Counted from the first letter of the stretch, positions 33,626-58,403 are shown. The stretch: DNA of 64,000 nt from Candidatus Omnitrophota bacterium (GCA_029570205.1 JAKQSI010000070.1:53254-117253); one strand, 5' to 3'. Translations and numbers: made by a program. Notes: generated by a model not told the origin, from the sequence alone.

Positions 33626-33662
33626 CTCCCTCTCCCACCGGGAGAGGGTTGGGGTGAGGGGA
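33626..33662. repeat. Family-B element: hairpin CCCTCTCCC-acc-GGGAGAGGG followed by TTGGGGTGAGGG
   Basis: Copies with compensatory stem changes at 42870-42915, 48034-48073, 49141-49172 and 58366-58403. Confidence 0.7.
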
Positions 33663-33733
33663 TGTTCACCGTGTTCACTCTGTCCACCCTTCTCCCACGG
33701 TCTGAGTGCGATGAGAATTTCTTCCTCCCCCAT

Positions 33734-33777
33734 AAAAAATCCTCCGGTCGGAACAATTTCCAACCGGAGGATTTTGG
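33734..33777. terminator. Bidirectional rho-independent terminator between convergent genes
   Basis: AAAAAA then ATCCTCCGGTCGG (loop aacaattt) CCAACCGGAGGAT then TTTTGG: 12 bp paired stem flanked by an A-run and a T-run. Confidence 0.6.
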
Positions 33778-33814
33778 TCACCGCAAGAACCGATTACTCA
33801 CATCGGCATCTGGC

Positions 33815-35269
33815 TCAGTGGAGCTCCCAATCGGAGACCCCTGTGCCCTTAGCGGGATTCGGGAACACACTTACCACGCAATCGCTATTGCCGAAGGCTT
33901 GGGTTCCCCACGCGAACGCAACGAACTCATTGTTCATACCCGGCATGAGCTGGCCCGGCTTTCCACCTTTATCCGGGGGGAATTCCGGCAGATTGTGCGG
34001 AATGAAAGCATCCGTGGCCGGTGTACCATCGGCATTGAATACGCGAGCGACCGTGCACTCCATAAAGGTCACATCGTCCGCATAGCCATCTTGCCAGGAG
34101 ACAGCAAAGGAACCGTTGGGAGCCATCGCCACACGGTTGCGGCCCAAGCCACGTGTTTCGCTATGTTGAGAAACCAGGATCGGCGGGCCGATCGGGTCCC
34201 CGCTGGCGTTCCACAGCTGTGCCAGAACCACCCCGACTCCAGCCAGTTCCGGAAGCGGTGCGAATCCATCGGGGATTGTGGCTCCCTCGTGAACGGTCAC
34301 CCATAAGTCGCCACCGCAGGCTTCCATCCAGGTAGCCCCGGCATTCAACATTGAATCCCGAATCGGGAATTTACTACCCAACAGGCTGCCGTTGTTGTCA
34401 TAGAACTCGGCTGTGACACCGTTGTCCGAATCGCTGAACATTACGACGAAACCGTTGGCCAGCGCTCCGCAACGAATCCCCTCCTGTTTTCCGGTCACAT
34501 CATTGGTGAAAAACTCATCTTTGAATCGAGACCCATCGGAGTTGAAGATATTGATGGTTGCGACCTTGTTATTATTTGATGAGTAGTCGGGATCGCCCTC
34601 ATATCGGTGATTCTGGCAGTTGGTGACAATGACGAATTTTCCGTCATTGAGCCAGCAACAATCCCAATCCCGGTGCCCGGCGCTGAACTGAGAAATCGAA
34701 ATCGGTCCGGTGATCGGCTGAAGATTTCCATCGAACAACATGAAGAATCCATGCCCCTGGCCGTCGTCTTCTACAATTCCGTCCGCGTCGATCACGGTCT
34801 CCGGAATTATGACGTTTGAGTTGGTCAAACTGCTGGCTGTCCAAGTTGCCGCGGCCAGGAACACATTCTCACCACGCTTGTTCTTGCACAGTGTCCAGTT
34901 TGTATTCGCGCCTGTGTTGACTCCAACAATTATATCCGCCGCACCGCCATCTGTGAAGACGGGGAAGATACGGTTGCCGTTTCGATCCATTCCACTTACA
35001 TGGTGACTGCCGCCACGGTTTACCCAGAACACGACCGTAGTTCCGTTGTCCAGGACGCACAGTTTCTGCTCCCGGTCATCGTTGGAGGTCTGGCCCAGCA
35101 TCATCGGAACTTCAGTGTGAATCGGCGCCAATGGGGGTGTCAACTCCGCATACGTGGGAGTATCGTCCTTGTAAGTGATCGGCGAACCGATCGGTTGACT
35201 GAACGCCACGGGAACCGCAAACGCGCAGATCCCAACAATGAAAAACGTAAAACTCTTCTTCATGTTCAT
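33815..35269 (-). CDS. Secreted hypothetical protein (Sec signal peptide; repeated DG/NG beta-strand-like segments, possibly propeller or beta-sandwich)
   Basis: Start MNMKKSFTFFIVGICAFAVPVAFSQ with AAGGAG RBS; the upstream 63 aa of the ORF-track call are probably non-coding. Confidence 0.55.
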   Translation of the reverse strand: MNMKKSFTFFIVGICAFAVPVAFSQPIGSPITYKDDTPTYAELTPPLAPIHTEVPMMLGQTSNDDREQKLCVLDNGTTVVFWVNRGGSHHVSGMDRNGNRIFPVFTDGGAADIIVGVNTGANTNWTLCKNKRGENVFLAAATWTASSLTNSNVIIPETVIDADGIVEDDGQGHGFFMLFDGNLQPITGPISISQFSAGHRDWDCCWLNDGKFVIVTNCQNHRYEGDPDYSSNNNKVATINIFNSDGSRFKDEFFTNDVTGKQEGIRCGALANGFVVMFSDSDNGVTAEFYDNNGSLLGSKFPIRDSMLNAGATWMEACGGDLWVTVHEGATIPDGFAPLPELAGVGVVLAQLWNASGDPIGPPILVSQHSETRGLGRNRVAMAPNGSFAVSWQDGYADDVTFMECTVARVFNADGTPATDAFIPHNLPEFPPDKGGKPGQLMPGMNNEFVAFAWGTQAFGNSDCVVSVFPNPAKGTGVSDWELH

Positions 35270-35709
35270 AGTCTCCTTACCTATTTTTGTTTTTTCGTGA
35301 GTGTGCCGAATTTCCTCGCACGGTGGTCTTTTTTCACCTCCTCTCCGTCCCCAAACGGGAACAGGACCTCCTTCCGGAAACAGCAGCACAGTCGAATCAT
35401 AGCACATTTCGATACCCGATACTACCATGAACGATAAAATTATTACTTTTATTTCCATTTTTTCCGGAACAGAAGGGAAAATTACGTATTAGGAATTGGA
35501 AAAAAGGGACGGGCACGGATGGGGACAGGAGCGGACTGAATCACGAAAACGCGAAGAAAACGTGGGAATATGAAAAAAAAAGAAGAAATGGAGGACAAAA
35601 GGATCTGTTGCAAGCAGAATACTGACCGGGAAATACCCTCGCGCCGAAGAAAAGCAATGGGGACCGGGATGCGGCCCCTGATGCCGGGTTTCGCAGGAAT
35701 ATCCCTGAA

Positions 35710-37011
35710 TTATGCGCAGACAGCCTTGCGTTCTTCCGCTGTCATTTCATGGATTTTGCGTAACAGCGCCTCTTCTTCAGGCCCCATTTCCATATCCCGT
35801 CTGGACACAACCCTCCTGGCCACCTCGATGAACTTGTCCACGCGATACTCCATCACGCGCTTGGCCACCTGGATGAACTTGTCTGCTCGATACTCAACAA
35901 ATCCATCCGGACCGCCCCAGCAGAAAGACGGCACATACGTGGGCGGCAAACCGGAGCCATAGATGTTGCATCCGATCCCGATGACGGTTCCAGTGTTCAA
36001 CATGGTGTTGATTCCGGTTTTGGAATGATCGCCGATGGTGCATCCGACAAAAAGGCTGCCGGTGTCGATCCGTTCGCCGTTGATTGTGACTTTCACAGTT
36101 CCATATTCATTCTTCAGGTCGCTGTTATTCGTGTTTGCCCCGAGGTTGACCCATAAGCCCAGGTAAGCATGTCCGAGAAAGCCATCATGCTGCTTGTTTG
36201 AATAGCTGTGAATAATGGATTCCTCGACCTCGCCGCCCACTTTGCAGACCGGACCGATGCTGGTCCCTTCGTAAATCTTCGCGCCGATTTTGATCGCGCT
36301 TTTTTTGCCGACATAAGTCGGCCCTTCAATTACGGCGTTCGGGAAGATTTTCGCATCTTTGTCGATAAAAACCGGTCCCTCTTCCGCATCGATCACCGTG
36401 CCAGGCGTCACTTTCGCGCCCGCCGCGATATAGACATGCTCTCTCCCCAGAATGTGAACACCTTCGTAAACTGTACCTTCAATCTCTCCCGGCCTGGCCA
36501 GGGTCCTGAATTCCCGAACGATCTCTTTCGAGTTGTTTTGAACCAGATTCCACGGATACTTAAGAACCGGATAGTCGACCTCGATTTTCTCTACTTGCGG
36601 CAGGCGATCCAATGTGATCGGTTGGGTCCAATCGACCGCAGCCAGGTTCGCGCCGGACAGACGTGCCGCAATGACCGTATCATCCCTCACGAAAATCTTG
36701 TCGGGTCCCTCGATCCGTATGTTCTGGCCGAACTCTTCATACCACAAGGCGCGACCATTAACCAGAAGTGCGTTCTCCGCCTTGCATTCGTTGACCGGAC
36801 AGTTGATCTTTCTGTAGCCGAGATATTCTTTCAGAAACGGCTCCAGAAGTTTCCGGACATGATACACAAAAGCGGCTCTCGGATAGGCGGCCTGAATCTT
36901 TTCTCCCAGCATCCTGATTCCGCACCGAAGTGAGTACACAGGATTATTCAACGTAAGCGGGTAGAAATTTCGATACCCCTCGTCTTCGAAAAGTACGACG
37001 TGCCCAGCCAT
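35710..37011 (-). CDS. Left-handed beta-helix (hexapeptide-repeat) protein, GlmU-C-terminal/sugar-nucleotidyltransferase-like
   Basis: Multiple [LIV]-G-x-x-x-x hexapeptide repeats in the C-terminal half; internal 15-aa tandem duplication near the C-terminus. Confidence 0.55.
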   Translation of the reverse strand: MAGHVVLFEDEGYRNFYPLTLNNPVYSLRCGIRMLGEKIQAAYPRAAFVYHVRKLLEPFLKEYLGYRKINCPVNECKAENALLVNGRALWYEEFGQNIRIEGPDKIFVRDDTVIAARLSGANLAAVDWTQPITLDRLPQVEKIEVDYPVLKYPWNLVQNNSKEIVREFRTLARPGEIEGTVYEGVHILGREHVYIAAGAKVTPGTVIDAEEGPVFIDKDAKIFPNAVIEGPTYVGKKSAIKIGAKIYEGTSIGPVCKVGGEVEESIIHSYSNKQHDGFLGHAYLGLWVNLGANTNNSDLKNEYGTVKVTINGERIDTGSLFVGCTIGDHSKTGINTMLNTGTVIGIGCNIYGSGLPPTYVPSFCWGGPDGFVEYRADKFIQVAKRVMEYRVDKFIEVARRVVSRRDMEMGPEEEALLRKIHEMTAEERKAVCA

Positions 37012-37157
37012 CTATGTTTTCCTCCTGTGGGACGGATTTTGATCGTTTTTCAAACTTCCCCGCAATCTGTCGTTCCCATCCTGCAGGGGTTCCCATCCTG
37101 CAGGGGCAAGGCATGCCTTCCCCCTGCCAAATGCCTTCCTCTATGCGTTACAACCTC

Positions 37158-37928
37158 TTATTCCGGTTTGTTGTTATAGACCCATTTATAGTAATCCTTC
37201 AGTTCGAGTTGGGAGGCGGCAGCCTCATCGAGGACGAAGATAGCTCTGGGATGAGTTTGCAGGACGGAGGCAGTCACCATGGCGGTGACAGGTCCTTCGA
37301 TGGCCTTCTTGATGGTCGCGGCCTTTTTACTGCCGTTGCAGAGCAGCAGGCAGATTCGCGCTTCCATGATCGTTCCGACACCCATGGTGAGGGCATACCG
37401 GGGGACATCCTCTATCTTTTCGAAGAATCGCGAATTGTCGTTGATGGTTTCCTGCGTCAATGTTTTCATGCGTGTGCGCGAAGCCAGGGAAGAGCCCGGC
37501 TCATTGAATGCGATATGACCGTCTCCGCCGATGCCGAGAACCTGCAAGTCGATCCCGCCTGCCTCGTCGATCTGTTCCTCGTACCATTCACAGTGCGCCT
37601 CCGGATCTTCCGCCATGCCGTCGGGGACGTGGACATTCTGCGGCGACAAATTGATATGATTGAACAGATTATCGTGCATGAAATAGTGATAGGACTGGTC
37701 GTGGGTCCGCGGGAGGCCGATGTATTCGTCCAGGTTGAACGTGATGACCTTGGAGAAATCCAGCCCCTCTTCCTTGTACATGCGAATGAGTTCTTTGTAG
37801 AGACCGATAGGGGTGCTGCCGGTGGCCAATCCCAACACGCAGTTGGGCTTTCTGCGTACGAGAGAGGCGACGATTTTCGCCGCTTCTCTACTCATTTCGT
37901 CATAATCGGCCTTGATGATGACTTCCAT
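37158..37928 (-). CDS. nagB: Glucosamine-6-phosphate deaminase
   Basis: Start MEVIIKADYDEM with GGAG RBS; NagB motifs (LGLATGSTP, GIGGDGHIAFNEPGSS). Confidence 0.9.
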   Translation of the reverse strand: MEVIIKADYDEMSREAAKIVASLVRRKPNCVLGLATGSTPIGLYKELIRMYKEEGLDFSKVITFNLDEYIGLPRTHDQSYHYFMHDNLFNHINLSPQNVHVPDGMAEDPEAHCEWYEEQIDEAGGIDLQVLGIGGDGHIAFNEPGSSLASRTRMKTLTQETINDNSRFFEKIEDVPRYALTMGVGTIMEARICLLLCNGSKKAATIKKAIEGPVTAMVTASVLQTHPRAIFVLDEAAASQLELKDYYKWVYNNKPE

Positions 37929-38472
37929 TCTGATGCTCCGTTTCTTCTGTGGGAATTGCGTGATACCTCTGAGTTTGATTCGCGACAAATCGGAAGTATA
38001 ATCGGCTTTTTCTCCTGTTCGCTAGGGAAGAATATCGGACAACGGATTGCAGTCGGCAGAGTTTAAAAAAAAGAAGACTGGCCCCAAGCTCCGCTTCGGT
38101 ACCAGCCTCAAAAGCTTCAGAAGGTTTTTGGTTAGCTCCGCTAACGTTCGTTCCTTCGAAACTCTCGAAGGTTTGAACGATCTCGGGCGTTCACTCGTTG
38201 TCCGTCCGAGACCACTCCAACCTTCATATCTACAGCACCCAACCCTTTTTTAGCAACTGCAATGCCAAAAAGCGGAATGGTCGATTCCGCGAGGCTTCTA
38301 TGGTTCATAACATGCAGAGTATTAAGGAGTTAGAATCAGGTATCCCCATGGAAATCCCGAATGGGTTTCCGTAATGACAGGTGGAATGAAGACAGGAATT
38401 TCTTGCCGTTCGATATGGGGCAGATGAGACGTTTGCCGGAACAATACCCGGCCTTTGGAACTATCGAAGCGC

Positions 38473-38964
38473 CTATTCCGCCAGGGCCTTCATAATTCTG
38501 GGTGGGAGAAGCCAGACCAATTCCATTTCCCCCTCGGATAGCTGAACCCGCGCAACGCCTCCCTTTTTCATCCACACTCCGCCTCGGTGGTGACCACAGG
38601 TGGCGAAGGAGACAAAGCGCGAGAACGCCGGATCATGCCCCACAAGCACGACACAGTCCTTTTTTGTTTTCTGCGCGACCTCCAGAAGGTCCTGAGGGCT
38701 TGCGTCCGGTCCGAGGCGCTCATCCTCCATCAATCCCTCCGAGGGGATCCCAAAGGCTTCCGCGACGATCTCAGCGGTCTGCCTGGCCCGTACCAGCGGA
38801 CTACTGATGATCGCCCCCGGTTTTTCCAGAATCCGCTGCAACCCTGTCGCGATTCTTTCCATGTCTCTGATCCCCTCGGATGTCAGTGCGCGCTCGGCAT
38901 CGAATCGAACGCCCGGACTGCCGAGCGGTTCGGCGGCTGCATGACGGATCAGCACGATATCCAT
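38473..38964 (-). CDS. sixA: Phosphohistidine phosphatase SixA (histidine-phosphatase superfamily)
   Basis: MDIVLIRHAAAE with RHA catalytic-motif start; ~160 aa. Confidence 0.75.
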   Translation of the reverse strand: MDIVLIRHAAAEPLGSPGVRFDAERALTSEGIRDMERIATGLQRILEKPGAIISSPLVRARQTAEIVAEAFGIPSEGLMEDERLGPDASPQDLLEVAQKTKKDCVVLVGHDPAFSRFVSFATCGHHRGGVWMKKGGVARVQLSEGEMELVWLLPPRIMKALAE

Positions 38965-38967
38965 GGT

Positions 38968-39615
38968 TTACTCCTTTGTGCTTGTGGCGCCCGGCGGTGT
39001 TTCTCCCATCCGTTTGAGAGCCTCTTCGGCGGCTTTCCGAACCTCTTCATAGTGGTCCAGAGTGGCCTCTTGGATCATTTCGAGCGCCCTGGGATCACCG
39101 ATTTCCCCCAGGGCCTTGATCGCGGCGGCACGAAGAGCGGATTCCCGGGGGCCGCGGCGACCCGCCATCAGCAGAAGATCCTCCACCGCTTCCCTTGCTC
39201 CGAGTCTCCCCAGCATCATGGCAGCCATCATGTAATAAGGGGTCTCTTTCCGTTCCCAAATCTGTTCCATGGAATGACGATTTCCCATACGGACGATTTC
39301 CAGCAGGGGATCAACCGCTGTGAATCCATACTCCAGAATCTTTTCCATGCGGGGAAAGACCTCGCGGGATGGCGGCGGCTGGCCTTCCTGGGACCGTGCC
39401 AGGTACCAGGCGAACATCTTGTCGATTGCATCCAACGCCTCTTTTTCCTCGGTAGAGAATTTTTTCGCGTCGATCTCATTGAGCAGCGGGTGCTTGCAGT
39501 CCCCGTGAGATTCTTTCCAACTTTTCTTTTCATCCGTGAGTGTGCATGAGATGGCCAGGATTGTTATCAGCGCAAGACGCCATCCGAACGGAATTGCATC
39601 AGGAAGACTTTTCAT
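38968..39615 (-). CDS. HEAT-repeat lipoprotein
   Basis: Signal/lipobox LALITILAISCT; C-terminal HEAT repeats (ALGEIGDPRALEMIQEATLDHYEEVRKAAEEAL); 4-nt gap to sixA. Confidence 0.6.
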   Translation of the reverse strand: MKSLPDAIPFGWRLALITILAISCTLTDEKKSWKESHGDCKHPLLNEIDAKKFSTEEKEALDAIDKMFAWYLARSQEGQPPPSREVFPRMEKILEYGFTAVDPLLEIVRMGNRHSMEQIWERKETPYYMMAAMMLGRLGAREAVEDLLLMAGRRGPRESALRAAAIKALGEIGDPRALEMIQEATLDHYEEVRKAAEEALKRMGETPPGATSTKE

Positions 39616-39998
39616 CGGTTTGGTATCCTATCTATTCCCCCTCGGTTCCCGTATTTGGGATTGTACCGGCCCTGCTCTCGGAATCTATCGCGCATGTCAC
39701 GCCTATTCCCGAAGCGGAGATAGCTTTCAAAAATATCCCCCGTTCCCGAGACACGCAGGTCCTTTTGTTCCTGCAGCAGAGTGTTCAGTTTACCTTGGTG
39801 TTCCCGGCGCCGGACTCGCGCGTGTACTTCTTCCCTGGGATTCTCGAATTTTCCCGACGCCAAGAGGATATTCGGGCGCTCTCTGTCTTTCTCTGCCTGT
39901 ACGGAGATTGAGAAAGGACGTCGAGCAAAGGCGGTCATCAGTCCCGCTCCTGCGCAGACTGTGCCTTTCAGGAACCGGCGTCTTTTTATTATGCCCAT
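39612..39998 (-). CDS. Small (128 aa) TAT-signal protein, R/E/K-rich, function unknown
   Basis: MGIIKRRRFLKGTVCAGAGLMTAFA twin-arginine signal; AAGGAGA RBS 6 nt upstream; stop overlaps the start of the HEAT lipoprotein (ATGA). The 298-aa ORF-track call starting at 40508 is not supported. Confidence 0.45.
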   Translation of the reverse strand: MGIIKRRRFLKGTVCAGAGLMTAFARRPFSISVQAEKDRERPNILLASGKFENPREEVHARVRRREHQGKLNTLLQEQKDLRVSGTGDIFESYLRFGNRRDMRDRFREQGRYNPKYGNRGGIDRIPNR

Positions 39999-40077
39999 CG
40001 GAATCTCTCCTTCGGCTGATGGGACCAATTTTAGGCTGCACTTGTACAATGTCAATAACGATGGAGAAACGCGGCGC

Positions 40078-40106
40078 TTGACAGATCTGCGGATAAAAGT
40101 TACAAG
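40078..40106 (+). promoter_or_regulatory. Candidate promoter TTGACA-N17-TACAAG upstream of the URO-D-family gene
   Basis: Same hexamers and spacing as at 16779-16807. Confidence 0.35.
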
Positions 40107-40235
40107 AAGAGGTCCTGGTGGCGAATTGGCCATGTTACAACCCTCACCCCAACATTTTCTTCCGGTGGGAGAGGGACGCATCCGGGTGGGTGTCGGACTC
40201 GCCCGTACTTTTGACACAGCAGAGTGTGCGCCGCC

Positions 40236-41327
40236 ATGAATTCCAAGGAACGTGTACATCGTGCGCTGCGACGGGAACCGGTGGACCGGGTTCCTGTGTT
40301 TATGTGGTTTCATCCGGAGACCGCGAAACGGTTCGCGGCTCGGCTCGATATTCCGGTCAGTCGCCTGCCGGAGGCCATGGGGGATGATATCCGGCAGACT
40401 TGGGTGAATAACAACTACGCCATGGAGGGCATTGTTCATCAATACAACGGTGAGTCGCATGTCGATGAATGGGGAGTTCGGTGGGTAAAGGACGGTCCGT
40501 TTAACCAAGCCGTTGAATTTCCCCTGGCGAACCTGAGCGCGGATGAGGTTCGGGCGTATCGCTTCCCGGTGGATCGCCTGGAGTACCTCCTGTCGCTAAT
40601 GAACCCCATTCTTGCGCAGCGCGAGGACTATTTCATCGGCTGCGATGTTTCGCCGTGCGTGTTTGAGATGTACTGGCGTCTGCGCGGCATGGAGCAGACG
40701 CTGTTGGATATTGCGCTGGAACCGGAACTCACACGGGACATGTTCAACCGATGCGCCGAGTTTGCACGGCTTCTCTCTAAAGAGGCCTGCAAGCGGTTCC
40801 CGCTGGACTGGCTGTGGACGGGCGACGACGTGGCCGGGCAGGAGGGCCTCCTGTTCAGCCGTAACCGGTGGCGCGACCTTGTTATGCCGGGCCTCGCGCG
40901 GATATTCGCCGTCGGCAAGGAACACCACTTGTGGGTCGCCTGCCATTGCTGCGGCGCGCTCTACCCGATTATCGCCGACCTGATCGAGATCGGCCTGGAT
41001 GTTCTCAATCCCATCCAGTGTAACTGTAGAGGAATGAACCCGTTCGACTTGAAGCGTGAATTCGGCGACCGCCTCGCATTTATGGGCGGCGTGGATACAC
41101 AACAACTCCTGCCGTTCGGAACAGCGAAAGAAGTTCGGATGGAAACCGAGCGGTTGATGGATGGAATGACTACAGACGGTGGCGGCTACATTTTAGCCGC
41201 ATCCCACACCATCCCTCCGGAAACGCCGGATGAGAATATCTTTGCGCTCTACCAGGCTGCGGGAATCGGTCGGGAGGAGATCCTGGACCGCGCGGCAGAG
41301 ATACGGAAGTCCTGTGGCGCCGATTAG
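40236..41327 (+). CDS. Uroporphyrinogen-decarboxylase (URO-D) family protein, MtaA/CmuA-like methyltransferase type (paralog of 11620-12585)
   Basis: MNSKERVHRALRREPVDRVPVFMW start and URO-D fold motifs. Confidence 0.75.
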   Translation: MNSKERVHRALRREPVDRVPVFMWFHPETAKRFAARLDIPVSRLPEAMGDDIRQTWVNNNYAMEGIVHQYNGESHVDEWGVRWVKDGPFNQAVEFPLANLSADEVRAYRFPVDRLEYLLSLMNPILAQREDYFIGCDVSPCVFEMYWRLRGMEQTLLDIALEPELTRDMFNRCAEFARLLSKEACKRFPLDWLWTGDDVAGQEGLLFSRNRWRDLVMPGLARIFAVGKEHHLWVACHCCGALYPIIADLIEIGLDVLNPIQCNCRGMNPFDLKREFGDRLAFMGGVDTQQLLPFGTAKEVRMETERLMDGMTTDGGGYILAASHTIPPETPDENIFALYQAAGIGREEILDRAAEIRKSCGAD

Positions 41328-41390
41328 CAACGTGTCTCAGCCGTCATTCCGGTGAAAGCCGGAATCCTCGCAGCGCGGCAGGGCGTATAT

Positions 41391-41419: not shown

Positions 41420-41462
41420 ATGTACGATCTTGGCCGCCCCTCCTCTCTACCCATTCTCTACC

Positions 41463-42728: not shown

Positions 42729-42967
42729 TTTTTTGAACACCTCGATATTCGCGTAGAGGCAATTCGTGAATTGTGCCAACACATTCGTGAATTGTCCCTA
42801 CATATATGTCTTCCGGTTTCTGCCACCGGCAAGATGCCTGTGCCACCCTCTTTTTCCTCCCCTCTCTCCTACTCTCTCCCCCTCTCCATACTTGGAGAGG
42901 GGGCCGGGGGGTGAGGATTTGGGGGCAGGATTTCCCCAAGGGCCGGGATCAAGGACCTCTGTAATCA

Positions 42968-47931: not shown

Positions 47932-47993
47932 TGAATGACGGCTTTCGCCGGAATGACGGCTTTCGCCGGAATGACGGCTTTCGCCCGGATGAC
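47932..47993. repeat. Three tandem 18-nt units GAATGACGGCTTTCGCCG (family-A half-hairpin units)
   Basis: Contiguous direct repeats; each GCCGGAAT...ATTCCGGC junction can refold as the family-A hairpin. Confidence 0.7.
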
Positions 47994-48033: not shown

Positions 48034-48073
48034 CCCCCCTCTCCATGCCTGGAGACAGGGCCGGGGGGTGAGG
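48034..48073. repeat. Family-B element (CCCCTCTCCA-tgcc-TGGAGA, then CAGGGCCGGGGGGTGAGG)
   Basis: Same architecture as 33626-33662 and 42870-42915. Confidence 0.65.
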
Positions 48074-48081
48074 AAATAATC

Positions 48082-49068: not shown

Positions 49069-49257
49069 GAAACCTCGCTCCTTTCTATCTATTTCAAAGG
49101 ACTATCCAGCATTCCATACCTGAACAATGTGACTTCTTCTCCCTCTCCCGCCGGAAAGGGTCGGGGTGAGGGTGTCTCCGGGCGCCACCGGCATCTTGCC
49201 GGTGGACAAGTCTCCCTCTCTCATCCCCATCGGTCCTATTCATCCTGCCCGGTTCTC

Positions 49258-50854: not shown

Positions 50855-51859
50855 ATGACATTACGGATTGGAATTATTGCTTTAGGCAAAATCAGTGAAC
50901 GAACGCATCTGCCTCTGTATAAAGAGGTGAGGGGAGTGCAAGTTGTGGCCGCATGTGACCCCGACGAAGAACGCGCCCTGCTCATGCAGGATCAATTCAA
51001 AATCCCGCGCATTTACAAGTCCTATCAGGAGATGTTTGCCCACGAGGAACTGGATGCGGTTTCGGTCAACAGCCCGCACCGGTTTCACGCGGAACAGGCC
51101 GTCGCCGCCGCAAAGCACGGGCTTCATGTTCTTGTCGAAAAACCCATGGCGCTTTCTGTGAAAGATATTCGCGCCATGATCGCCGCCTCCAGGAAGGCGG
51201 GAAAAGTTCTGATGGTCGAACAGTTCATGCGTTTTCATCCGGCGGTGTATAAGGCCCGCGAAGTGATCCAGTCCGGGAAACTCGGCAAAGTCCTCACGAT
51301 TCGCGGGCATTTCGGTCATGCCGGGCCGGAATACTGGTCGCCGGAGGGCAAGTGGTTCCTGCAGAAAAAAGAAGCGCAGGGTGGAACGATGCTGGATATC
51401 GGTGTGCATGAGATTGACCTGATGCGCTATATCTCCGGCAAGCAGGTGGCTCAGGTTGCCGCTTTCCTGGGGACTCTGAAGAAGAAAATCGATGTGGAGG
51501 ACAACGCGGTTGCGATCCTGCGGTTCGATGACGGAACCCTTGGGACGCTGGAATCCTCCTGGACAAATGATCCGGGCAACTGCCGCACGGAGTTCTATTG
51601 CGAGAAAGGGAACCTGGAGATGAATCTTTCCGGGAAAGATCCCCTGGTGATTTATCGTCCCAACAAAACACCTCAGCCGGTCTCTCTGGCAAAAAAACAT
51701 CCCGAAAAAAGCCCGATGGCCTATTTTGTGAAATGTATCCGAGAGGGTCTGGTTCCACATTGCGATGGTGTAGAGGGTGGCAAAAGTTGCGCCGTGGTCC
51801 TCATGGCCGCCATCTCCGACAAGGAGAAAAGAATCGTCAAAGTCCCGGAAATCGGGTGA
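50855..51859 (+). CDS. Gfo/Idh/MocA family NAD(P)-dependent oxidoreductase
   Basis: IGIIALGKIS Rossmann motif, VEKP motif; AAGGGAG RBS. Confidence 0.85.
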   Translation: MTLRIGIIALGKISERTHLPLYKEVRGVQVVAACDPDEERALLMQDQFKIPRIYKSYQEMFAHEELDAVSVNSPHRFHAEQAVAAAKHGLHVLVEKPMALSVKDIRAMIAASRKAGKVLMVEQFMRFHPAVYKAREVIQSGKLGKVLTIRGHFGHAGPEYWSPEGKWFLQKKEAQGGTMLDIGVHEIDLMRYISGKQVAQVAAFLGTLKKKIDVEDNAVAILRFDDGTLGTLESSWTNDPGNCRTEFYCEKGNLEMNLSGKDPLVIYRPNKTPQPVSLAKKHPEKSPMAYFVKCIREGLVPHCDGVEGGKSCAVVLMAAISDKEKRIVKVPEIG

Positions 51860-51863
51860 TTCG

Positions 51864-51898
51864 ATTGTGGATTGCGGATTGCGGATTGCGGATTGCAG
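51864..51898. repeat. Five tandem heptads GATTG(T/C)G immediately after the oxidoreductase stop
   Basis: The reverse complement CGCAATCC(A/G)CAATC recurs at 47306-47322, 48087-48100 and 29286-29300. Confidence 0.6.
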
Positions 51899-52071
51899 GA
51901 TAACAGGGAGGGGCGCAACCGTCATTCCGGCGAAAGCCGGAATCCAGCGTCCACACGCATAACGCTCGTGATAGCCTTTCTACTTCGAATAGCAGGACGG
52001 TTCCATTCCGTCCGCTATGTCCACTCTCCGACTCCTCCAAAAAATAAAAATCAAAAATTTCGAAAAAAAGC

Positions 52072-52099
52072 TAAAGGTTTTGCTAAGGTTTGCCGATAA
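52072..52099 (+). promoter_or_regulatory. Sigma-28 (FliA)-like promoter TAAAGGTT-N12-GCCGATAA, 1.1 kb upstream of flagellin 1
   Basis: 8/8 match to the -10 GCCGATAA and 7/8 to the -35 TAAAGTTT; spacer one nt longer than the E. coli consensus. Confidence 0.4.
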
Positions 52100-52362
52100 A
52101 GGAACCGACAAGGCAGTAAACCCTTTATGAGGTGTCTGTCGAGGACATCTCCGGGGTTGGCGTTTTCCGTCTGTGGGCATACGGCGAGGCGATACGTCAA
52201 TCGGCCCACAGGGAGCTCTCGGCCCTCTGCGATGGATATCGCGGAGAGGATTCAGAGGAGGATAGTAGCAAGGCCTGGGTGACGCTCATCGGGGCGTTCC
52301 TCCGGCAGGTAAGAATGCGGGTGCCTCGGAAGTATTCTTACCTGTCTGACAAAAGGCGAAAA

Positions 52363-52512
52363 TACATCGAGTCATTGCTGGCATCCCGGCCAAGAGCATG
52401 GGTCCGGTGAACGTGACCACCCTCCCGCGCTCTCATGTGAGTAATGGCTTGATCGACCGCCGCAGCCACTGTAGCCGGATTTCGATCCTGCAGGCGGCTA
52501 CGCCTTTTCAGT
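52363..52512 (+). repeat. Copy 1 of a ~110-nt structured element (conserved blocks AGCATCCCGGCCAAGAG, TGGCTTGATCGACCGCCGCAGC, CTGCAGGCGGCTACGC)
   Basis: Direct repeat of copy 2 at 52953-53060 with a 41-nt insertion; inner GGAT-ttcg-ATCC tetraloop hairpin. Confidence 0.5.
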
Positions 52513-52952
52513 CTCAACGGACCCACCCCTTCGCAGGCTGACGGATTCAACCTGTACTCGCTCAAGGCCAACCGATTGATTCACAACAGAAGGAACCGAG
52601 CCGGGGGCCGGTGTAATCCGGCCTTCCCGGAAGGCATCAACAGATCGGCCCGCCGGTATTCTCAACACGTATCCCGATCGTCCCGGCGCCCGAACGGTTG
52701 ATCCGCCTTCCGCCGGGTACCGGCTGACAACCGGCCTCCACCTCGGTTACAGAAACAGTGGAAGGGCGAGGTCCCAAAGCTGTCTCAGAACGTGATCACT
52801 GACCTGGAGCCCTCTCCCCCAAAGATTGGGGGAGACACAGAGGGGGTTGAGTCAGTCGGACATTAAGGAGCAACATAGACGCGAAAACAGGAGGAATTGC
52901 GCGGACAGAGGAGAACAGGACCGATGATCGCGTGGCCCGGTTAAAATAATTA

Positions 52953-53060
52953 AGCCATAACCAGCATCCCGGCCAAGAGAGTGGGTTATGGCTTAATCGA
53001 CCGCCGCAGCACACCGCAGCCCTATTTGGGTCTGCAGGCGGCTACGCTTTATCGTCTTGC
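52953..53060 (+). repeat. Copy 2 of the ~110-nt structured element, with a 13-bp outer stem TTAAGCCATAACC/GGTTATGGCTTAA
   Basis: Same conserved blocks as copy 1. The 22-nt variable segment between CCGCCGCAG and CTGCAGGCGG has the same length in both copies. Confidence 0.5.
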
Positions 53061-53115
53061 CAGGAAAGGTCGTATTCGGTTGTCTCTCCGAAGTTCCGAT
53101 CTTTCGTATCATCTG

Positions 53116-53145
53116 TTATCGGCAGTTCCTCCCAAACATTAAGCG
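53116..53145 (-). promoter_or_regulatory. Sigma-28-like promoter on the minus strand (TAATGTTT-N10-GCCGATAA), pointing leftwards into the repeat region
   Basis: Reverse complement of 53116-53145 gives TAATGTTTgggaggaactGCCGATAA. Confidence 0.35.
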
Positions 53146-53218
53146 ATTCTACACATTTTTTTCAATTTTTTGCGGGCACGGATGATTTTCCCGCAGGAGA
53201 TTCACGGAGGAAACTGTC

Positions 53219-55624
53219 ATGGTCATCTCCAGCCTGACCCGAAATATCCCTGCTTTGGATGTTATTCTGCGGATGCACCGCACGGAAAGCAACCTCAGCG
53301 CCAACATCACCCGTCTGTCTTCCGGCCTTCGAATCAATACTCCCGCCGATAGTCCGGGCGACTTTGTCACCCTGAGTCGCCTGGGCAGTCGTATTCGGGG
53401 GATCGACCAGGCAAGCCTTAATTCCCAAACTGCGTCCAACATGGCGGCCACCGCGTCAAACGGGATCAGCGAAATGATCTCTCGCCTCCAGTCGATCCGG
53501 ACGAAAGCGGTCGCTGCAGCATCCACCGGAACCTCCGATCGTATTACGCGAGCCGGATACCAGGCCGAGATCAACCAGCTGATCGACGACATGGACCGCA
53601 TCGCCTCCGGGACCTCGTTTAACGGAAAGAATCTGCTTGACGGAAGCTATGCCAGTAGCACCGAGTTCGTCGAACCGAACCGGTTCAACGGGTCTATTTC
53701 CTTTGGGGCAACTTCCTCTACCCTTCGGTCCGGAACCAGCATCCTCAACATCGTGCAATTGGATCCCGGATCCGAACGATTTGTGATCGGCGACACTGGC
53801 GGGATCAGTCTGGGAATTCAAAACCGAACCGACATCGCCGTCTCCATCGGCCAACTCATCGACATGGGAACGGGGCTGACCGCCAATGTGACGGACGACT
53901 TGGACACGCTCAATTTCGGAAAAGTCTCCCTCATCAACAATGGGACGATTCAATTCACCGGTAACCTTGCGGATGGGGTGACTGCATTTGCAGGCCAGGT
54001 TTCTATCGGCGGCGGCCAGGATATCAATGACCTGGTTACGGCCATCCAGGCCGCGATTGACGCAGCGGAAACCGGTATCGGCGTCAACGGTGCGGGCACG
54101 GGACCTTACGAAACCGTGGTCTCCTACGACAACACCACCGGACGGCTGGAGTTCACCAACGGGCAGGGAAATACCATTTCCCAGTTCTCAATCGCATTTA
54201 CGGTCAAGGACAACACCGGAACCACGCAGACCACCACGGGAAGCACACGCACCGCCAATATCTACAACCCGCAAGGGGGAATCGGAACGGTCTCCGGCGC
54301 TCAAATCGGGAACTCTCTGTCTTCCATCACCGGCTCCACCTTCGACCCCGGCACATTTGAAATCACGGTCAGCGACCGGATTGCCGCGCAACAGCGCACC
54401 ATTTCGACGACTTATGCCTTTACGGATTTTGGGGGCGCTCCCGTCGGTGCAGGTACGAACATTAACAATACCGCGTTGTTCAACGGTTCGATCACGCTCT
54501 CTCTCAACAACGGCGACACGATTGACTTTACCGGAACCAATCCCGATGGAACGACGTTCACGGGTACGATCACCATCGCGGCAGGGGACCCGGCTGTCGG
54601 AAACGGCATTGCACGGAGATACAGCGACCTGATCGCCGAGTTGAACTACCGCGATCAGCGCGGAACATTCTACGGGTGGAACCAGGCCACCGCGACGCTT
54701 TCCGCCGGGAAAATCCAACTGATCGATGATGTTGCCGCCACCTCCAGCACAGCCATGCAGATGGTGGTTAATACGGCGGGCGGGGATGCAGTGGATGACG
54801 GTGTTGTAGTGTATTCCGGCAACGCGGAACGGGCGACGATTTCCATTGCAGGCGGCGCAAGTCAGACGGTGGAAAGCGGGCAGGTGGTAACCCTGGAAGG
54901 CGCGGACTTGAATGCCTCCGGACAGGATTCCCAAGTTACGTTTCGTGTCGGACGGAATCTCTTCGATGGCAGCGATGACCTGGAGATTACCGCCCAGGAA
55001 TACATTGCCAGGTTAAACAATGGACCGGCGGTCACATTCCGCAACGGCGACCAGGGGGTATTCATTTCCGATGGGAACAATCCCACCGGCGATATCGCCG
55101 GAGCACAACAGGTCCAACTTAACTTCGACACGGTTTTGGGGATTACTTCCAATGCCTCTTCCGGTGGCGAGAACTTCGTCCTTACAACCGTAGCCGACCG
55201 GCTGAATTACCATATCGGCCCCGATGCCTGGGAGGACCGCATGTTCTCCTATTTCAATGTGCAGTCCTCCAACCTGGGGATCTCCGAAACCCGAAATCTC
55301 GGCAATATCAGTGTGACGACTCTCACGGGCGCAAATGATGCCATCGAGGTCATAGACGCTGCGCTGGACCAGCTGAACGTTGTTGCGGGTGTTGTCGGCA
55401 GCCTGGAAACCCGTATGCAGGACACCTCCAGTCAACTCGATCTCTACTCTCTCAATCTGGACACCGCCTTTTCGACAATCGCCGATGCGGACATGGCGAA
55501 AGAGACAACCAAACTTGCAATGAACTCACTCCTGATGACTTCGCAGACGGCGGCGTTGCTCCAATCGACAATGTTGCCGACCGAAATTATCCCGCTTCTG
55601 CTTGGAATCGACTTGAAGTCATAA
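53219..55624 (+). CDS. Giant flagellin (801 aa): conserved N- and C-terminal flagellin domains with a ~500-aa T/G/N-rich central domain
   Basis: N-terminus NLSANITRLSSGLRINTPADSPGDF; C-terminus LETRMQDTSSQLDLYSLNL...MAKETTKLAMNSLLMTSQTAALLQ; GGAGG RBS. Confidence 0.85.
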   Translation: MVISSLTRNIPALDVILRMHRTESNLSANITRLSSGLRINTPADSPGDFVTLSRLGSRIRGIDQASLNSQTASNMAATASNGISEMISRLQSIRTKAVAAASTGTSDRITRAGYQAEINQLIDDMDRIASGTSFNGKNLLDGSYASSTEFVEPNRFNGSISFGATSSTLRSGTSILNIVQLDPGSERFVIGDTGGISLGIQNRTDIAVSIGQLIDMGTGLTANVTDDLDTLNFGKVSLINNGTIQFTGNLADGVTAFAGQVSIGGGQDINDLVTAIQAAIDAAETGIGVNGAGTGPYETVVSYDNTTGRLEFTNGQGNTISQFSIAFTVKDNTGTTQTTTGSTRTANIYNPQGGIGTVSGAQIGNSLSSITGSTFDPGTFEITVSDRIAAQQRTISTTYAFTDFGGAPVGAGTNINNTALFNGSITLSLNNGDTIDFTGTNPDGTTFTGTITIAAGDPAVGNGIARRYSDLIAELNYRDQRGTFYGWNQATATLSAGKIQLIDDVAATSSTAMQMVVNTAGGDAVDDGVVVYSGNAERATISIAGGASQTVESGQVVTLEGADLNASGQDSQVTFRVGRNLFDGSDDLEITAQEYIARLNNGPAVTFRNGDQGVFISDGNNPTGDIAGAQQVQLNFDTVLGITSNASSGGENFVLTTVADRLNYHIGPDAWEDRMFSYFNVQSSNLGISETRNLGNISVTTLTGANDAIEVIDAALDQLNVVAGVVGSLETRMQDTSSQLDLYSLNLDTAFSTIADADMAKETTKLAMNSLLMTSQTAALLQSTMLPTEIIPLLLGIDLKS

Positions 55625-55768
55625 AAACCAACCGATCGCAGGATCGGAAAAGGAGGTTGAAAATTCGCGAAATGACGTAGTTGTAAGTCCTGGAAATTCC
55701 GAGTACAATAGCCGTCGGGGTCGGAGGAAAGGACTCCTTCGGCTGGGGTCGAGGGTGTTACCCGTGCT

Positions 55769-55776
55769 ATCCGATA
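55769..55776 (+). promoter_or_regulatory. Possible sigma-28 -10 element TCCGATAA, 133 nt upstream of flagellin 2
   Basis: 7/8 match to GCCGATAA; the context CCGATAAAGG is identical to 52093-52102. No convincing -35. Confidence 0.25.
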
Positions 55777-55901
55777 AAGGTGTCATTCGGCAAGGGCGAC
55801 GCGTGCGTCGCCCCTACCGGACGATACCAGGCATCGCTCCCGGAACAGGGGGCATGGTCGGAAGTGGAATAATCAACACAAACACAGCATCACGGAGGAA
55901 G

Positions 55902-58313
55902 ATGGTCATGGATTCCCAACGGATTGGCAGACAATTATTCAATTATTCTCAATACCAGGCGCTTTACTCGAACAAATTACAGAAGGTTCTCGAATCGCTC
56001 TCGTCGGGGTTGCGGATCAACCGGGCGGGGGATGATGCGGCGGGGCTGTCCATCGCCAAGCGGCTTCAGGCACAGTTCAGTTCCCTCAATCAGGCCATGT
56101 CGGATGCCCAGTCCAGTCTGAATGTCGCGGCTGTCGCGGACCAGGCGTTGGGCGAGACCTCGGATCGCTTGGGGCAAATGCGTGAACTTGCGATCCAGGC
56201 GGCAAACACCGGCGTATATGACAAGCAATCTCGGCAGGCGCTCCAGGCAGAACTCAGCCAGTATGTGGATGAAATCAACCGCATCGCCGGTGCAACGCAG
56301 TTCGGAACCAACAGGCTTCTGAACGGTGATCTTTCGGCACAGGCCGGTCTCCGTGCGGGTCAACCGAACATCGGAGCAACGGTGGATACCGGGCCGTTTG
56401 CATCCACGCTGTCCACGGAAACGAATTACCTCACGATCACCCAGACCCGTCAGGGATCGGCCCAGATCCGCGCGGGAGAAGCCTACGGCCGCACACAAAC
56501 AATCAACCTGGGGGTGCAGAATGCGACGGATATCGCGGTCACCACGGGGACCATGTTCAATTCCGCCGCTGCTGCTCCCTCAGCGGCGGGCGACAATCTG
56601 ACCGATACCACGTTCAATTCGGTCACCCTGCAGGCAGGTGGCACAATCACATTCCAGGGCCAATTGGCCGACGGAACCACGGGCTTCTCCGGAACGCTCA
56701 GCATCGGGGCCGGAACGACGATCCATGATCTGGTCAACACGGTCCAGGCTGCCATCGACCAGGCCGAAACCGGGCAGGGAATCAATACCGCAAGCGGAAC
56801 GGGCGCTCGCGAAACCAATGTCCGATTCAATGCCACGACAGGCCGGATAGAATTTGTCAACAGCGCCGGGAATGCAGTCTCGGAGTTTGATATCAACTTC
56901 ACGGTCGAAAATGCCGCCGGAGTTCAGCAGACCCGGGTTGGTGTGACCCGGCAGGCCCAGATGAACGGTGTCGCGACCGGCGCGCAAGTCGGCAATAATG
57001 TGACCGCCATTACCGGCAACACATTCGACACCGGCCGGCTGAATATCACCGTGACCGATGTCCAGGCTGCGACCAACCGGCGAGTGGAAAGCAATATCGC
57101 GTTTCGCGACCAGGGTGGCGCGGCGCTTGCCGCCGGGGGACAACTGGTGGGAGCAGTCTATAACGGTGTTACCCTCGCGGCGGGAGACACTATTCAACTC
57201 CAGGGAACCAATTCTGACGGCACGACGTTTACCAACACGATCACAATTACCGCCGCCGGAGTGGATACCGGGGCAGGGAACGGGACAGCCTCGACATTCC
57301 AGGACCTGGTTGACGAAATGAATGTCCGCGACAATGCCATGGCAGCGGGCGGAGCGGGCAACCAAAGCGGATTCACCTCCGCGCGGGCGACACTCACCGG
57401 CAACGGGACCATCCAGGTCGTGGACGATCTCGCCGGGACTTCTCAAACCAACTTCACGCTCACCGTCAACGACCGTACCCCCGTCGGTGGTCAGACAGCC
57501 GGAACGATGGTGGATCGCGCGCGCGTTGTTGCCGCCGGAAACGCCGAGTCGGCCACGGTGCGCATAAACGGCGGACCGGCGCAGCGAGTCGAGGCCGGGC
57601 AGATGGCAACGCTCTATGGACAGAGAGACGCGACTGGAAATAGATCGCAGCTCACCATGCGGATCGGAACCGGCCTTACCGCCGGAACGGATGTGATGGA
57701 TGTCCGCGCCGATGAATATGTGGGCCGGCTGAACAACGGCACGGCGGTCACATTCCAGGCCGGCGACCAGAATGTCACGTTCACCAGCGGCGCGGCCACA
57801 GGTGTCGCCGAGACGCTCACCATGGATTTCGGGGCTGTTCTGGATATCCCCGGTGTCGGAGCGGCGAACGCCCAGACTGTGATTATTTCCGCCACGAATC
57901 GAAATGCCAATTTTCAGGTTGGAGCGTATGCGGACCGGAACATGCCGCTCTTTTTGGGCGATGTTCGGGCGAACCGGTTGGGCCTCGGTGCAGGACAGAC
58001 CCTTGAGGATATCGATATTACCACCCTCTCCGGCGCGGAGCAGGCCATCGGGATCATTGATGCCGCGCTGGAGGATGTCAATACCAGTCGAAGCCGGATC
58101 GGGGCGTTTTCGAACCGAATGGAGAGTTCGACGCGGGATATGGGGGTCGCAATCGAGAACCTCACAGCGGCCTATTCCCGCATGGCCGATACGGATATGG
58201 CCCGCAGTTCAACCCGTCTCGCGACAGAGAATCTCCTGATGCGGTACAACCTCGCTGTGCTGACACAGACCAATCAGTTGCAAAACCAGATGTTCACCGG
58301 GCTGTTGCCGTAG
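55902..58313 (+). CDS. Giant flagellin paralog (804 aa from MVMDSQ; the ORF-track call is 852 aa)
   Basis: N-terminus LESLSSGLRINRAGDDAAGLSIAKRL; C-terminus RIGAFSNRMESSTRDMGVAIENLTAAYSRMADTDMARSSTRLATENLLMRYNLAVLTQTNQLQ; GGAGGAA RBS. Confidence 0.85.
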   Translation: MVMDSQRIGRQLFNYSQYQALYSNKLQKVLESLSSGLRINRAGDDAAGLSIAKRLQAQFSSLNQAMSDAQSSLNVAAVADQALGETSDRLGQMRELAIQAANTGVYDKQSRQALQAELSQYVDEINRIAGATQFGTNRLLNGDLSAQAGLRAGQPNIGATVDTGPFASTLSTETNYLTITQTRQGSAQIRAGEAYGRTQTINLGVQNATDIAVTTGTMFNSAAAAPSAAGDNLTDTTFNSVTLQAGGTITFQGQLADGTTGFSGTLSIGAGTTIHDLVNTVQAAIDQAETGQGINTASGTGARETNVRFNATTGRIEFVNSAGNAVSEFDINFTVENAAGVQQTRVGVTRQAQMNGVATGAQVGNNVTAITGNTFDTGRLNITVTDVQAATNRRVESNIAFRDQGGAALAAGGQLVGAVYNGVTLAAGDTIQLQGTNSDGTTFTNTITITAAGVDTGAGNGTASTFQDLVDEMNVRDNAMAAGGAGNQSGFTSARATLTGNGTIQVVDDLAGTSQTNFTLTVNDRTPVGGQTAGTMVDRARVVAAGNAESATVRINGGPAQRVEAGQMATLYGQRDATGNRSQLTMRIGTGLTAGTDVMDVRADEYVGRLNNGTAVTFQAGDQNVTFTSGAATGVAETLTMDFGAVLDIPGVGAANAQTVIISATNRNANFQVGAYADRNMPLFLGDVRANRLGLGAGQTLEDIDITTLSGAEQAIGIIDAALEDVNTSRSRIGAFSNRMESSTRDMGVAIENLTAAYSRMADTDMARSSTRLATENLLMRYNLAVLTQTNQLQNQMFTGLLP

Positions 58314-58365
58314 TTGGTTTATGTCCCCCCTCAATCCCCCGTGAACGGGGAAAAGTATTCTCGTC

Positions 58366-58403
58366 TCCCTCCCCCGTTTACGGGGGAGGGTTGGGGGTCA
58401 GGG
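58366..58403. repeat. Family-B element (TCCCTCCCCCG-ttta-CGGGGGAGGG, then TTGGGGGTCAGGG) downstream of flagellin 2
   Basis: 11-bp stem; preceded by a second hairpin CCCCG-tgaa-CGGGG at 58336-58349. Confidence 0.6.

Follow-up and report, generated by a model that had tools for sequence, protein, structure and literature searches.

A 64,000-bp window of DNA from a Candidatus Omnitrophota bacterium (GCA_029570205.1, JAKQSI010000070.1:53254-117253) contains, between positions 33626 and 58403, a family of short CT-rich hairpins that are each followed by a G-rich box (family B). What are these elements, and how did they come to occupy the spacers of this genome? The original prediction proposed selection on structure together with a conserved single-stranded motif, possibly a terminator or protein-binding element, and missed the identity of the family: judged by sequence comparison, family B is the known BoxC/PIT/TMECO repeat. 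We consider it probable that the window carries a lineage-specific expansion of BoxC, that its copies are triplex-capable elements other than terminators, and that they are the orphan ends of a unit built around a DUF559 nuclease gene.

This repeat has been described under several names, as BoxC, then as PIT (potential intrastrand triplex) and TMECO, and as the HPGQ quadruplex-hairpin switch (PMC4666352, PMC5100583). E. coli K-12 contains 23 copies, such as CCCTCTCCCTGTGGGAGAGGGCCGGGGTGAGGGC, and the published TMECO pattern is CCCTCNCCC-N3-6-GGGNGAGGG-N3-GGGNGAGGG (Holder et al. 2015, PMC4666352). The E. coli family is strictly intergenic and shows no bias in strand or gene function, sequence variability is raised around its sites and no mobility genes were found near its members (PMC4666352). 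The same paper reports a contrast between Enterobacter asburiae and E. aerogenes, and E. coli strains with 1 copy as opposed to 29. A 53-nt query covering window positions 33618-33670 found matches in 5288 of 5426 complete E. coli genomes; the median genome has 14 such places, which bear no annotation, and identities reach 93-99%. When 185,579 species genomes were scanned for CCTCTCC-N3-10-GGAGAGG-N1-8-GGGTGAGG, a motif for which approximately 4 chance matches were estimated, at least 120 loci were found; among the loci listed, the hosts include Planctomycetota, Chloroflexota, Bacteroidota, Cyanobacteria, Acidobacteriota, Verrucomicrobiota, all proteobacterial classes and other groups. Conservation between taxa is confined to a core of approximately 35 nt, and the flanks are not conserved. 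No Rfam family matches anywhere in the window at the gathering threshold, and a literature search for later functional work on TMECO, PIT or HPGQ yielded citations only. Earlier accounts of BoxC/PIT are reportedly those of Bergler (1992) and of Hoyne and Maher (2000).

Repeat searches combined with a family profile and a scan for the structure identify nine BoxC copies in the window (Table 1), eight of them on the + strand, which corresponds to approximately one copy per 7 kb. The five copies of the original prediction are all present where it placed them, but its count was incomplete: those at 14449, 25826, 40140 and 52810 were added, some of them beyond the 33626-58403 interval. One explanation for such a set would be chance, either through low-complexity CT/GA-rich sequence or through Shine-Dalgarno-like tracts on the reverse strand. 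The spacers of the window are indeed CT-rich on the + strand, and the G-box alone with one mismatch is found at chance level (17 matches against 18.3 expected), so only exact or whole-element matches were counted as evidence. Exact GGGGTGAGG was seen five times in the window (0.76 expected), CCTCTCC-N3-12-GGAGAGG three times (0.00 expected) and CCCTCTCC 13 times (2.85 expected). A strict triplex scan, which required complete three-block motifs with at least eight triads and at most one bad triad, found four window motifs, all on the + strand, against 0.075 expected in dinucleotide shuffles; with two bad triads allowed, 12 motifs were found against 1.3 expected. Exact boxes, hairpin patterns and three-block motifs thus lie far above the shuffled controls, and a profile trained solely on other phyla finds seven of the window copies at E<0.05. 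Chance is refuted as an explanation, and we give it practically no weight.

The copies vary in how well they are preserved. The triad rule (C-G.G, T-A.A/T) is obeyed with at most one bad triad in four of them and with two bad triads in three more. For the eight copies that do not match the strict TMECO pattern, E-values from the family profile range from 2.6e-5 to 0.87, and copy 52810 was recovered by the triplex rule alone. When folded as single-stranded DNA with nearest-neighbor parameters, which cover the hairpin part of the element, the copies at 33626, 42877, 52810 and 58366 form hairpins of 9-11 bp (z -1.7 to -3.5), while the other five have stems with mismatches, a deletion or a lost arm. 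The compensatory stem differences that had been noted are real (CCCTCTCCC/GGGAGAGGG, CCCCCTCTCCA/TGGAGAGGGGG and CCCTCCCCCG/CGGGGGAGGG). Contrary to what had been claimed, the stems are not always complementary, given the mismatches in 48034 and 49141 and the decay of 40140, 25826 and 14449; nor is the G-box constant, since it reads GGGGGTCAGG in 58366, GGGGTGATG in 25826 and GGGGCAACGG in 14449.

Each element is 35-45 nt in length and consists of three blocks: a pyrimidine arm (CCCTCTCCC or a variant), a purine arm (GGGAGAGGG) that is its Watson-Crick partner, and a G-rich block (GGGGTGAGGG) in mirror symmetry to the purine arm. In single-stranded DNA, the pyrimidine and purine arms would pair as a hairpin, and the third block would fold back antiparallel on the purine arm, with G.G-C and A/T.A-T triads, to give an intrastrand purine-motif triplex. 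The comparative evidence for this geometry comes from 155 unique copies at 120 loci, in which the lengths of the G- and C-runs on either side of the TCT, AGA and TGA cores were compared. In the mirror register, and counting copies rather than independent evolutionary events, the 3' run of the purine arm correlates with the 5' run of the third block (rho 0.71) and the 5' run of the purine arm with the 3' run of the third block (rho 0.70); in the direct register, the runs are anti-correlated (rho -0.49 and -0.44). At least seven size classes fit the scheme Y(a,b)/R(b,a)/T(a or a+1,b), and each occurs in several taxa. Since mirror-register covariation ties the G-box to the stem, the box is not the constant single-stranded motif of the original prediction, nor is it independent of the stem; such a pattern is what an antiparallel third strand of the purine motif demands and what a free single-stranded box would lack. 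It supports a role of the box as the third strand of a putative intrastrand triplex, the fold itself being predicted here. Selection on structure, by contrast with that motif, is supported more strongly than had been proposed.

The same G-rich sequences have also been read as a switch between G-quadruplex, hairpin and duplex (the HPGQ model of Kaplan et al. 2016). This model gains from a consensus with four tracts of three or more Gs, from circular dichroism (CD) in K+ that supports a quadruplex for the E. coli motif (PMC5100583) and from the 116 of 155 copies that are canonical quadruplex candidates (four G3+ tracts, loops of 1-7). In the window, only 33640, 49158 and 58382 qualify by this definition, and a quadruplex suits copy 58366 better than a triplex does. 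The asymmetric copies speak against the model. None of the 34 copies whose purine arm has a 5' run of two Gs can form a canonical three-tetrad quadruplex, yet the mirror is perfect in all of them, so that the triplex rule describes the family better than the quadruplex rule does. Most of this class, including window copies 42877 and 48034, has the form GGAGAGGGGG-CC-GGGGGGTGAGG (variant sequence GGAGAGGGGGCCGGGGGGTGAGG). Furthermore, a quadruplex does not require the G-runs to covary in mirror register, and the mixed orientation of the copies relative to genes argues against a single regulatory logic. For E. coli oligonucleotides, CD and nuclear magnetic resonance indicated that a highly stable triplex forms in vitro, the 18 imino signals of one oligonucleotide being read as a triplex rather than as a quadruplex (PMC4666352). 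Based on these comparisons, we regard the quadruplex switch as improbable.

Are the copies terminators? Based on Pfam-supported open reading frames (ORFs) and on the gene calls for the same DNA in a metagenome-assembled genome (MAG; GCA_035417385.1, contig DAOLPB010000044.1), all nine are intergenic. Six of the nine lie at most 160 nt downstream of a stop codon and several form stable hairpins, which would suit an intrinsic terminator or a 3' untranslated region stabilizer, in which the hairpin ends or protects transcripts while the G-box binds a protein. Repetitive extragenic palindromic (REP) elements play a role of this type in E. coli. The original prediction had raised a terminator as one possibility and had placed the copies downstream of genes; they are intergenic, but they are not uniformly downstream in one orientation. 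The G-rich strand is sense with an adjacent gene at 14449, 33626, 52810 and 58366 and antisense to both neighbors at 25826, 42877, 48034 and 49141, and copy 40140 lies in a divergent spacer, that is, in a promoter region, so that four or five sense copies stand against four antisense ones. The transcript at these four antisense copies would bear the C-rich complement, and one of them lies immediately ahead of the hemE start. Direct reading of all nine copies shows no T-run or T-tail, and a scan of 40-59 kb made no terminator-like call at any copy. Hairpins alone would leave the mirrored third block unexplained, and assays of PIT elements in E. coli found neither promoter nor terminator activity (PMC4666352). 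The window copies are thus not supported as terminators, and we consider a terminator or stabilizer function highly unlikely.

The evidence on the origin of the family comes from other genomes. Protein homology spanning the elements in stop-free frames revealed a cluster of DUF559 proteins (PF04480, a Vsr-fold PD-(D/E)XK nuclease domain). In loci selected by the BoxC motif, 10 of 11 DUF559 domains have a BoxC at most 200 nt away, usually on both sides and in inverted orientation; the hosts include Gemmataceae, Variovorax, another beta-proteobacterium, Acinetobacter, Cytophagales and phage contigs. When loci were selected by protein instead, nine of 80 IMG/VR DUF559 loci (five at a stricter score threshold) contained BoxC; all nine belong to the 14 closest YcjD relatives, and almost all of their BoxC copies adjoin the ORF. 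Eight YcjD-like proteins were further selected by homology alone, for long contigs and varied sources, and in each of the eight loci a BoxC or a clear variant precedes the start codon by 5-30 nt, overlaps or closely follows the stop codon, or is present at both ends. The control DNA gave one BoxC profile match in 689 kb.

The commonest complete unit is BoxC(+) - ATG...DUF559...stop - BoxC(-), with a length of approximately 410-450 bp. In two units (L411 and L413), the ORF ends with CCC TCA CCC TAA, which is the complement of the third block followed by the type A TTA loop read as a stop codon. The BoxC-flanked proteins are 36-50% identical to YcjD, and DUF559 aligns with the Neisseria gonorrhoeae structure 3HRL (E=6.8e-38) and weakly with the mobile-intron homing endonuclease I-Bth0305I (3R3P, E=0.0055). 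In E. coli K-12, ycjD (b1289, DUF559) adjoins fabI, at the locus where BoxC was reportedly first described. The last codons of ycjD (...SPSP stop) enter a degenerate BoxC, and a duplicated fragment of the ycjD 3' end and then an intact TMECO (copy number 9) follow. Between K-12 hrpB and mrcB, a type B copy is separated by 16 nt from an inverted type A copy containing CCCTCACCCTAA; no gene is present, and both ends are the same as those of full DUF559 units. If gene-less pairs are the two ends of a full unit, this would explain the rule of Holder et al. that each pair joins a type A copy to a type B copy (PMC4666352). DUF559 proteins are also 14-fold enriched among predicted targets of programmed inversion (PMC9881135), as would be expected for a gene between inverted repeats. 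Neither ycjD nor DUF559 is mentioned by Holder et al. (PMC4666352) or Kaplan et al. (PMC5100583), and a link of either to BoxC was not found in titles or abstracts of the literature naming one or the other.

The association of BoxC with DUF559 is well supported, and it suggests, more tentatively, that the nuclease mobilizes the repeat. The complete unit, a YcjD-like nuclease gene between inverted BoxC ends, would be a small selfish element; copies standing alone and inverted pairs without a gene would derive from it, in the manner of miniature inverted-repeat transposable elements (MITEs), and the window copies would be its orphan, non-autonomous ends. The main local consequence would be growth of spacers and indel instability rather than gene regulation. 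The original prediction had allowed for a protein-binding element, and the best candidate for such a protein is a YcjD-like DUF559 nuclease rather than a regulator. A broader form of this proposal would make BoxC/PIT/TMECO as a whole the terminal inverted repeats, and MITE-like derivatives, of unrecognized selfish elements whose nuclease recognizes the triplex- or hairpin-forming end, with units lying in frame in metG and in a phage terminase gene, with phages carrying them between phyla and with amplified orphan ends in the window. We regard that wider claim as evenly balanced.

BoxC is also found inside reading frames. In two beta-proteobacteria, a whole BoxC-DUF559-BoxC unit lies in one stop-free frame within metG, where it separates the anticodon-binding domain of methionyl-tRNA synthetase from the C-terminal tRNA-binding domain. 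The motif is present in more than 120 IMG/VR contigs, while published work reported none in phages. In phage contigs with portal, terminase and major head genes, solitary BoxC elements lie in stop-free frames at domain junctions, one separating the ATPase from the nuclease domain in the large terminase and another the portal part from the head-morphogenesis part of a portal ORF. Overall, 43% of elements lie in long stop-free frames compared with 75% of random positions, a measure that is crude in GC-rich DNA.

Within the lineage of the window, two groups of copies share loops: ACC/GCC is common to 33626, 49141 and 40140, and ATRCYT with a CC second loop to 42877 and 48034. As these loops are unconstrained by the fold, their sharing points to propagation within the lineage. 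For comparison with relatives, loci around homologues of kdgK (42-82% identical) were used; in a total of 689 kb they contain only three triplex motifs and one profile match. In one relative (L130), whose kdgK protein is 82% identical, the aldolase-kdgK spacer is 36 bp in length and has no repeat, compared with 189 bp in the window. Another (L197), with 90-96% nucleotide identity, lacks approximately 45 nt including the hairpin of copy 48034 and has one unit of a neighboring 18-nt repeat where the window has three. Nine public copies of the locus from several metagenomes (L001-L009) are 100% identical and give no signal of instability. The nearest relatives thus differ at the copies themselves, and these indels match the instability described for E. 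coli.

Alternatively, the elements could be a structure-prone repeat that spreads or persists with the help of no dedicated enzyme, for example by replication slippage, gene conversion or recombination; DUF559 would then be merely co-located or would use BoxC as a regulatory signal. The window is itself an example of BoxC without a DUF559 gene, E. coli carries many BoxC and at most two copies of ycjD, with many strains having none, and other short repeat families share the window spacers. Holder et al. likewise tied the motif to local instability and invoked no mobility gene (PMC4666352). Three points make this account unlikely in our view. First, the fit between repeat and gene is precise in Proteobacteria, Planctomycetota, Bacteroidota, Binatia and phage contigs, with a BoxC 5-27 nt ahead of the start codon and the stop codon inside the inverted BoxC. 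Second, template copying yields inverted rather than mirror repeats. Third, the presence of a near-identical 35-nt core in many phyla and in phages calls either for transfer or for a partner with sequence specificity.

A number of observations weigh against orphan triplex ends as the explanation for the window copies. No DUF559 domain or fragment was detected in six-frame segments of the window (best E about 1); its copies would therefore be orphans, a reading that extrapolates from other genomes. The accessory gene ycjD is found in 3378 of 5426 complete E. coli genomes (38% are without it) and in at most one or two copies, compared with a median of 14 places for the nearly universal BoxC, so that current mobilization by YcjD is at most putative. 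Complete units showed no target-site duplication, and E. coli strains that lack ycjD showed no clean empty site; in O157:H7, a TetR/RND efflux operon takes the place of the ycjD-BoxC stretch upstream of fabI, and no BoxC lies at that site. In vivo dimethyl sulfate footprinting in E. coli detected no protection and no stable triplex (PMC4666352). The covariation, as stated above, has copies as its unit, and in the quadruplex-like copy 58366 seven of nine triads obey the mirror rule. Finally, the G-rich strand is the + strand in eight of nine copies, including all four well-formed ones, regardless of gene direction (binomial two-sided p ~0.04 in this small sample). The reading does not explain this bias, and since the GC skew of the window gives no direction of replication, the bias cannot be interpreted.

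The window finding itself is ordinary: it adds one more genome to a repeat family that has been described three times, as BoxC, PIT/TMECO and HPGQ. The three-block mirror covariation across phyla is comparative evidence for a conserved triplex geometry over a G-quadruplex, where in vivo footprinting failed. The tight, reciprocal association with YcjD-like DUF559 genes, whose start and stop codons lie at BoxC ends, gives the family its first candidate enzyme and hints at how a repeat spreads whose origin has been unexplained since the 1990s. It also makes it possible to test where BoxC originated and how it spreads, with E. coli ycjD and a protein of solved structure (3HRL). This link, which we did not find in the literature searched, is a lead and the part worth pursuing.

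The spacers of this genome gather several repeat families (Table 1). A second short palindromic repeat, GTCATTCCGGCGAAAGCCG(GAATCC), has six matches in the window against 0 expected and often lies in BoxC spacers. A third, CCGGCAAGATGCC(G/T)GTG(G/C)C, is found in spacers that also hold BoxC copies 42877, 49141 and 58366. The spacer upstream of flagellin 1 (51860-53218, 1.36 kb) has internal direct repeats approximately 545-585 bp apart, and two adjacent flagellin paralogues of 801 aa lie 3' of it.

Table 1. Positions of BoxC copies and other repeats in the window, and of BoxC-associated genes and frames at other loci (E, family profile E-value; z, folding z-score)
Feature	Sequence	Position	Strand	Composition	Remarks
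BoxC, decayed	Window	14449-14483	+	Y-arm CCCTCTCC, loop TTCC, R-arm GGGAGAGG, CTC, degenerate third block GGGGCAACGG	Between two co-directional PQQ-propeller genes; 7-bp hairpin only; E=0.017
BoxC, decayed	Window	25826-25865	+	CCCTCTCC AGTCG GCAGAGAGG ATC GGGGTGATGGGGG	Spacer between yceG stop and hemE start, ~30 nt before the latter, antisense to both; E=0.019; triplex scan match with two bad triads
BoxC, intact canonical	Window	33626-33661	+	CCCTCTCCC ACC GGGAGAGGG TT GGGGTGAGGGG	Between convergent sigma-54 activator gene and unknown gene; sole strict TMECO-pattern match of the window (at 33628); E=3.5e-7; 9-bp hairpin
BoxC, decayed, R-arm lost	Window	40140-40177	-	CCCTCTCCC ACC GGAAGAAAATGTT GGGGTGAGGG	620-bp divergent spacer between HEAT-repeat gene and URO-D-like gene; E=1.8e-4
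BoxC, intact asymmetric variant	Window	42877-42917	+	CCCCCTCTCCA TACT TGGAGAGGGGG CC GGGGGGTGAGGA	Between AP_endonuc_2 stop and ceramidase-like gene start, antisense to both; 11 perfect pairs, mirrored third block; z=-3.0; no canonical G-quadruplex
BoxC, decaying asymmetric variant	Window	48034-48074	+	CCCCCCTCTCCA TGCC TGGAGACAGGG CC GGGGGGTGAGGA	Begins 8 nt past kdgK stop, antisense; two mismatches
BoxC, decaying canonical	Window	49141-49172	+	CCCTCTCCC GCC GGAAAGGG TC GGGGTGAGGG	Inside 189-bp aldolase-kdgK spacer; mismatch and deletion; E=2.6e-5
BoxC, sequence-divergent	Window	52810-52848	+	CTCTCCCCC AAAGATT GGGGGAGAC A CAGAGGGGG	1.36-kb spacer upstream of flagellin 1; perfect mirror repeat, obeys triplex rule despite different sequence; z=-3.0
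BoxC, variant	Window	58366-58403	+	CCCTCCCCCG TTTA CGGGGGAGGG TT GGGGGTCAGGG	Begins 53 nt past flagellin 2 stop; 10-bp hairpin; z=-3.5; canonical G-quadruplex candidate
Second repeat	Window	33570-33588	-	GTCATTCCGGCGAAAGCCG(GAATCC)	
Second repeat	Window	41343-41361	+	GTCATTCCGGCGAAAGCCG(GAATCC)	
Second repeat	Window	47939-47993	-	GTCATTCCGGCGAAAGCCG(GAATCC)	Three tandem 18-nt units
Second repeat	Window	51921-51939	+	GTCATTCCGGCGAAAGCCG(GAATCC)	
Third repeat	Window	42826-42844	+	CCGGCAAGATGCC(G/T)GTG(G/C)C	
Third repeat	Window	49184-49202	-	CCGGCAAGATGCC(G/T)GTG(G/C)C	
Third repeat, similar sequence	Window	near 58415-58435			
Direct repeat, flagellin 1 spacer	Window	52370-52403 with 52953-52986			
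Direct repeat, flagellin 1 spacer	Window	52437-52466 with 52981-53010			
BoxC-flanked YcjD-like gene	L411	1155-1608			
BoxC-flanked YcjD-like gene	L415	1160-1565			
BoxC-flanked YcjD-like gene	L416	1139-1601			
BoxC-flanked YcjD-like gene	L417	1591-1801			
BoxC-flanked YcjD-like gene	L418	993-1580			
BoxC-flanked YcjD-like gene	L013	1308-1793			
BoxC-flanked YcjD-like gene	L040	2112-2648			
BoxC-flanked YcjD-like gene	L330 (E. coli K-12)	1351040-1351830			
Locus related to O157:H7 replacement	L424	1140-1630			
In-frame metG unit	L040	1777-4515	-		
In-frame metG unit	L013	2-2161	+		
Phage frame with BoxC	L224	3797-5326			Element 4396-4430
Phage frame with BoxC	L224	1005-2243			Element 1895-1929
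Phage frame with BoxC	L272	4723-6795			Element 5293-5323

Compared with BoxC/PIT/TMECO of E. coli, the window copies have the same three-block sequence, length, strictly intergenic position and lack of a fixed gene orientation, as well as indel variation at copies between close relatives. They differ in being carried by an uncultured, non-proteobacterial MAG, whose gene content tentatively suggests a PVC-like host, and in their density, approximately one per 7 kb compared with 23 copies in the 4.6 Mb of K-12 and at most 143 per genome in published counts (PMC4666352). They also differ in having second loops that are all NNG (type B-like) and never TTA, in forming two structural subfamilies, including the asymmetric (5,2) class, and in the many decayed copies. 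The E. coli family is without the strand bias seen here (8/9) and has inverted type A and type B pairs, whereas the window has neither inverted pairs nor TTA loops; these are descriptive rather than defining traits of the E. coli copies. The HPGQ motif (Kaplan et al. 2016, PMC5100583) comprises identical E. coli sequences under another name, defined by four G-tracts and a 5' C-rich arm. By that definition, three window copies are canonical candidates and the asymmetric class is excluded.

REP elements and their mosaics (BIMEs), which are associated with the RAYT (TnpA-REP) transposase, and MITEs resemble BoxC by analogy only. They too are short, intergenic, palindromic and present in many copies, of which a minority flank a putative mover gene as inverted repeats while gene-less pairs and solitary copies predominate. 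Unlike REP, BoxC has a third, mirror block, and its putative partner is a Vsr-fold PD-(D/E)XK DUF559 nuclease rather than an HUH Y1 transposase; its mobility, too, is predicted. To our knowledge, no transposition chemistry is known for DUF559 and no function for YcjD. Among the Vsr-fold endonucleases (YcjD, 3HRL and I-Bth0305I, 3R3P), the products of BoxC-flanked genes are clear DUF559 members, and their genes, unlike that of I-Bth0305I, stand alone between BoxC copies and are not carried by an intron or intein, the in-frame metG units apart.

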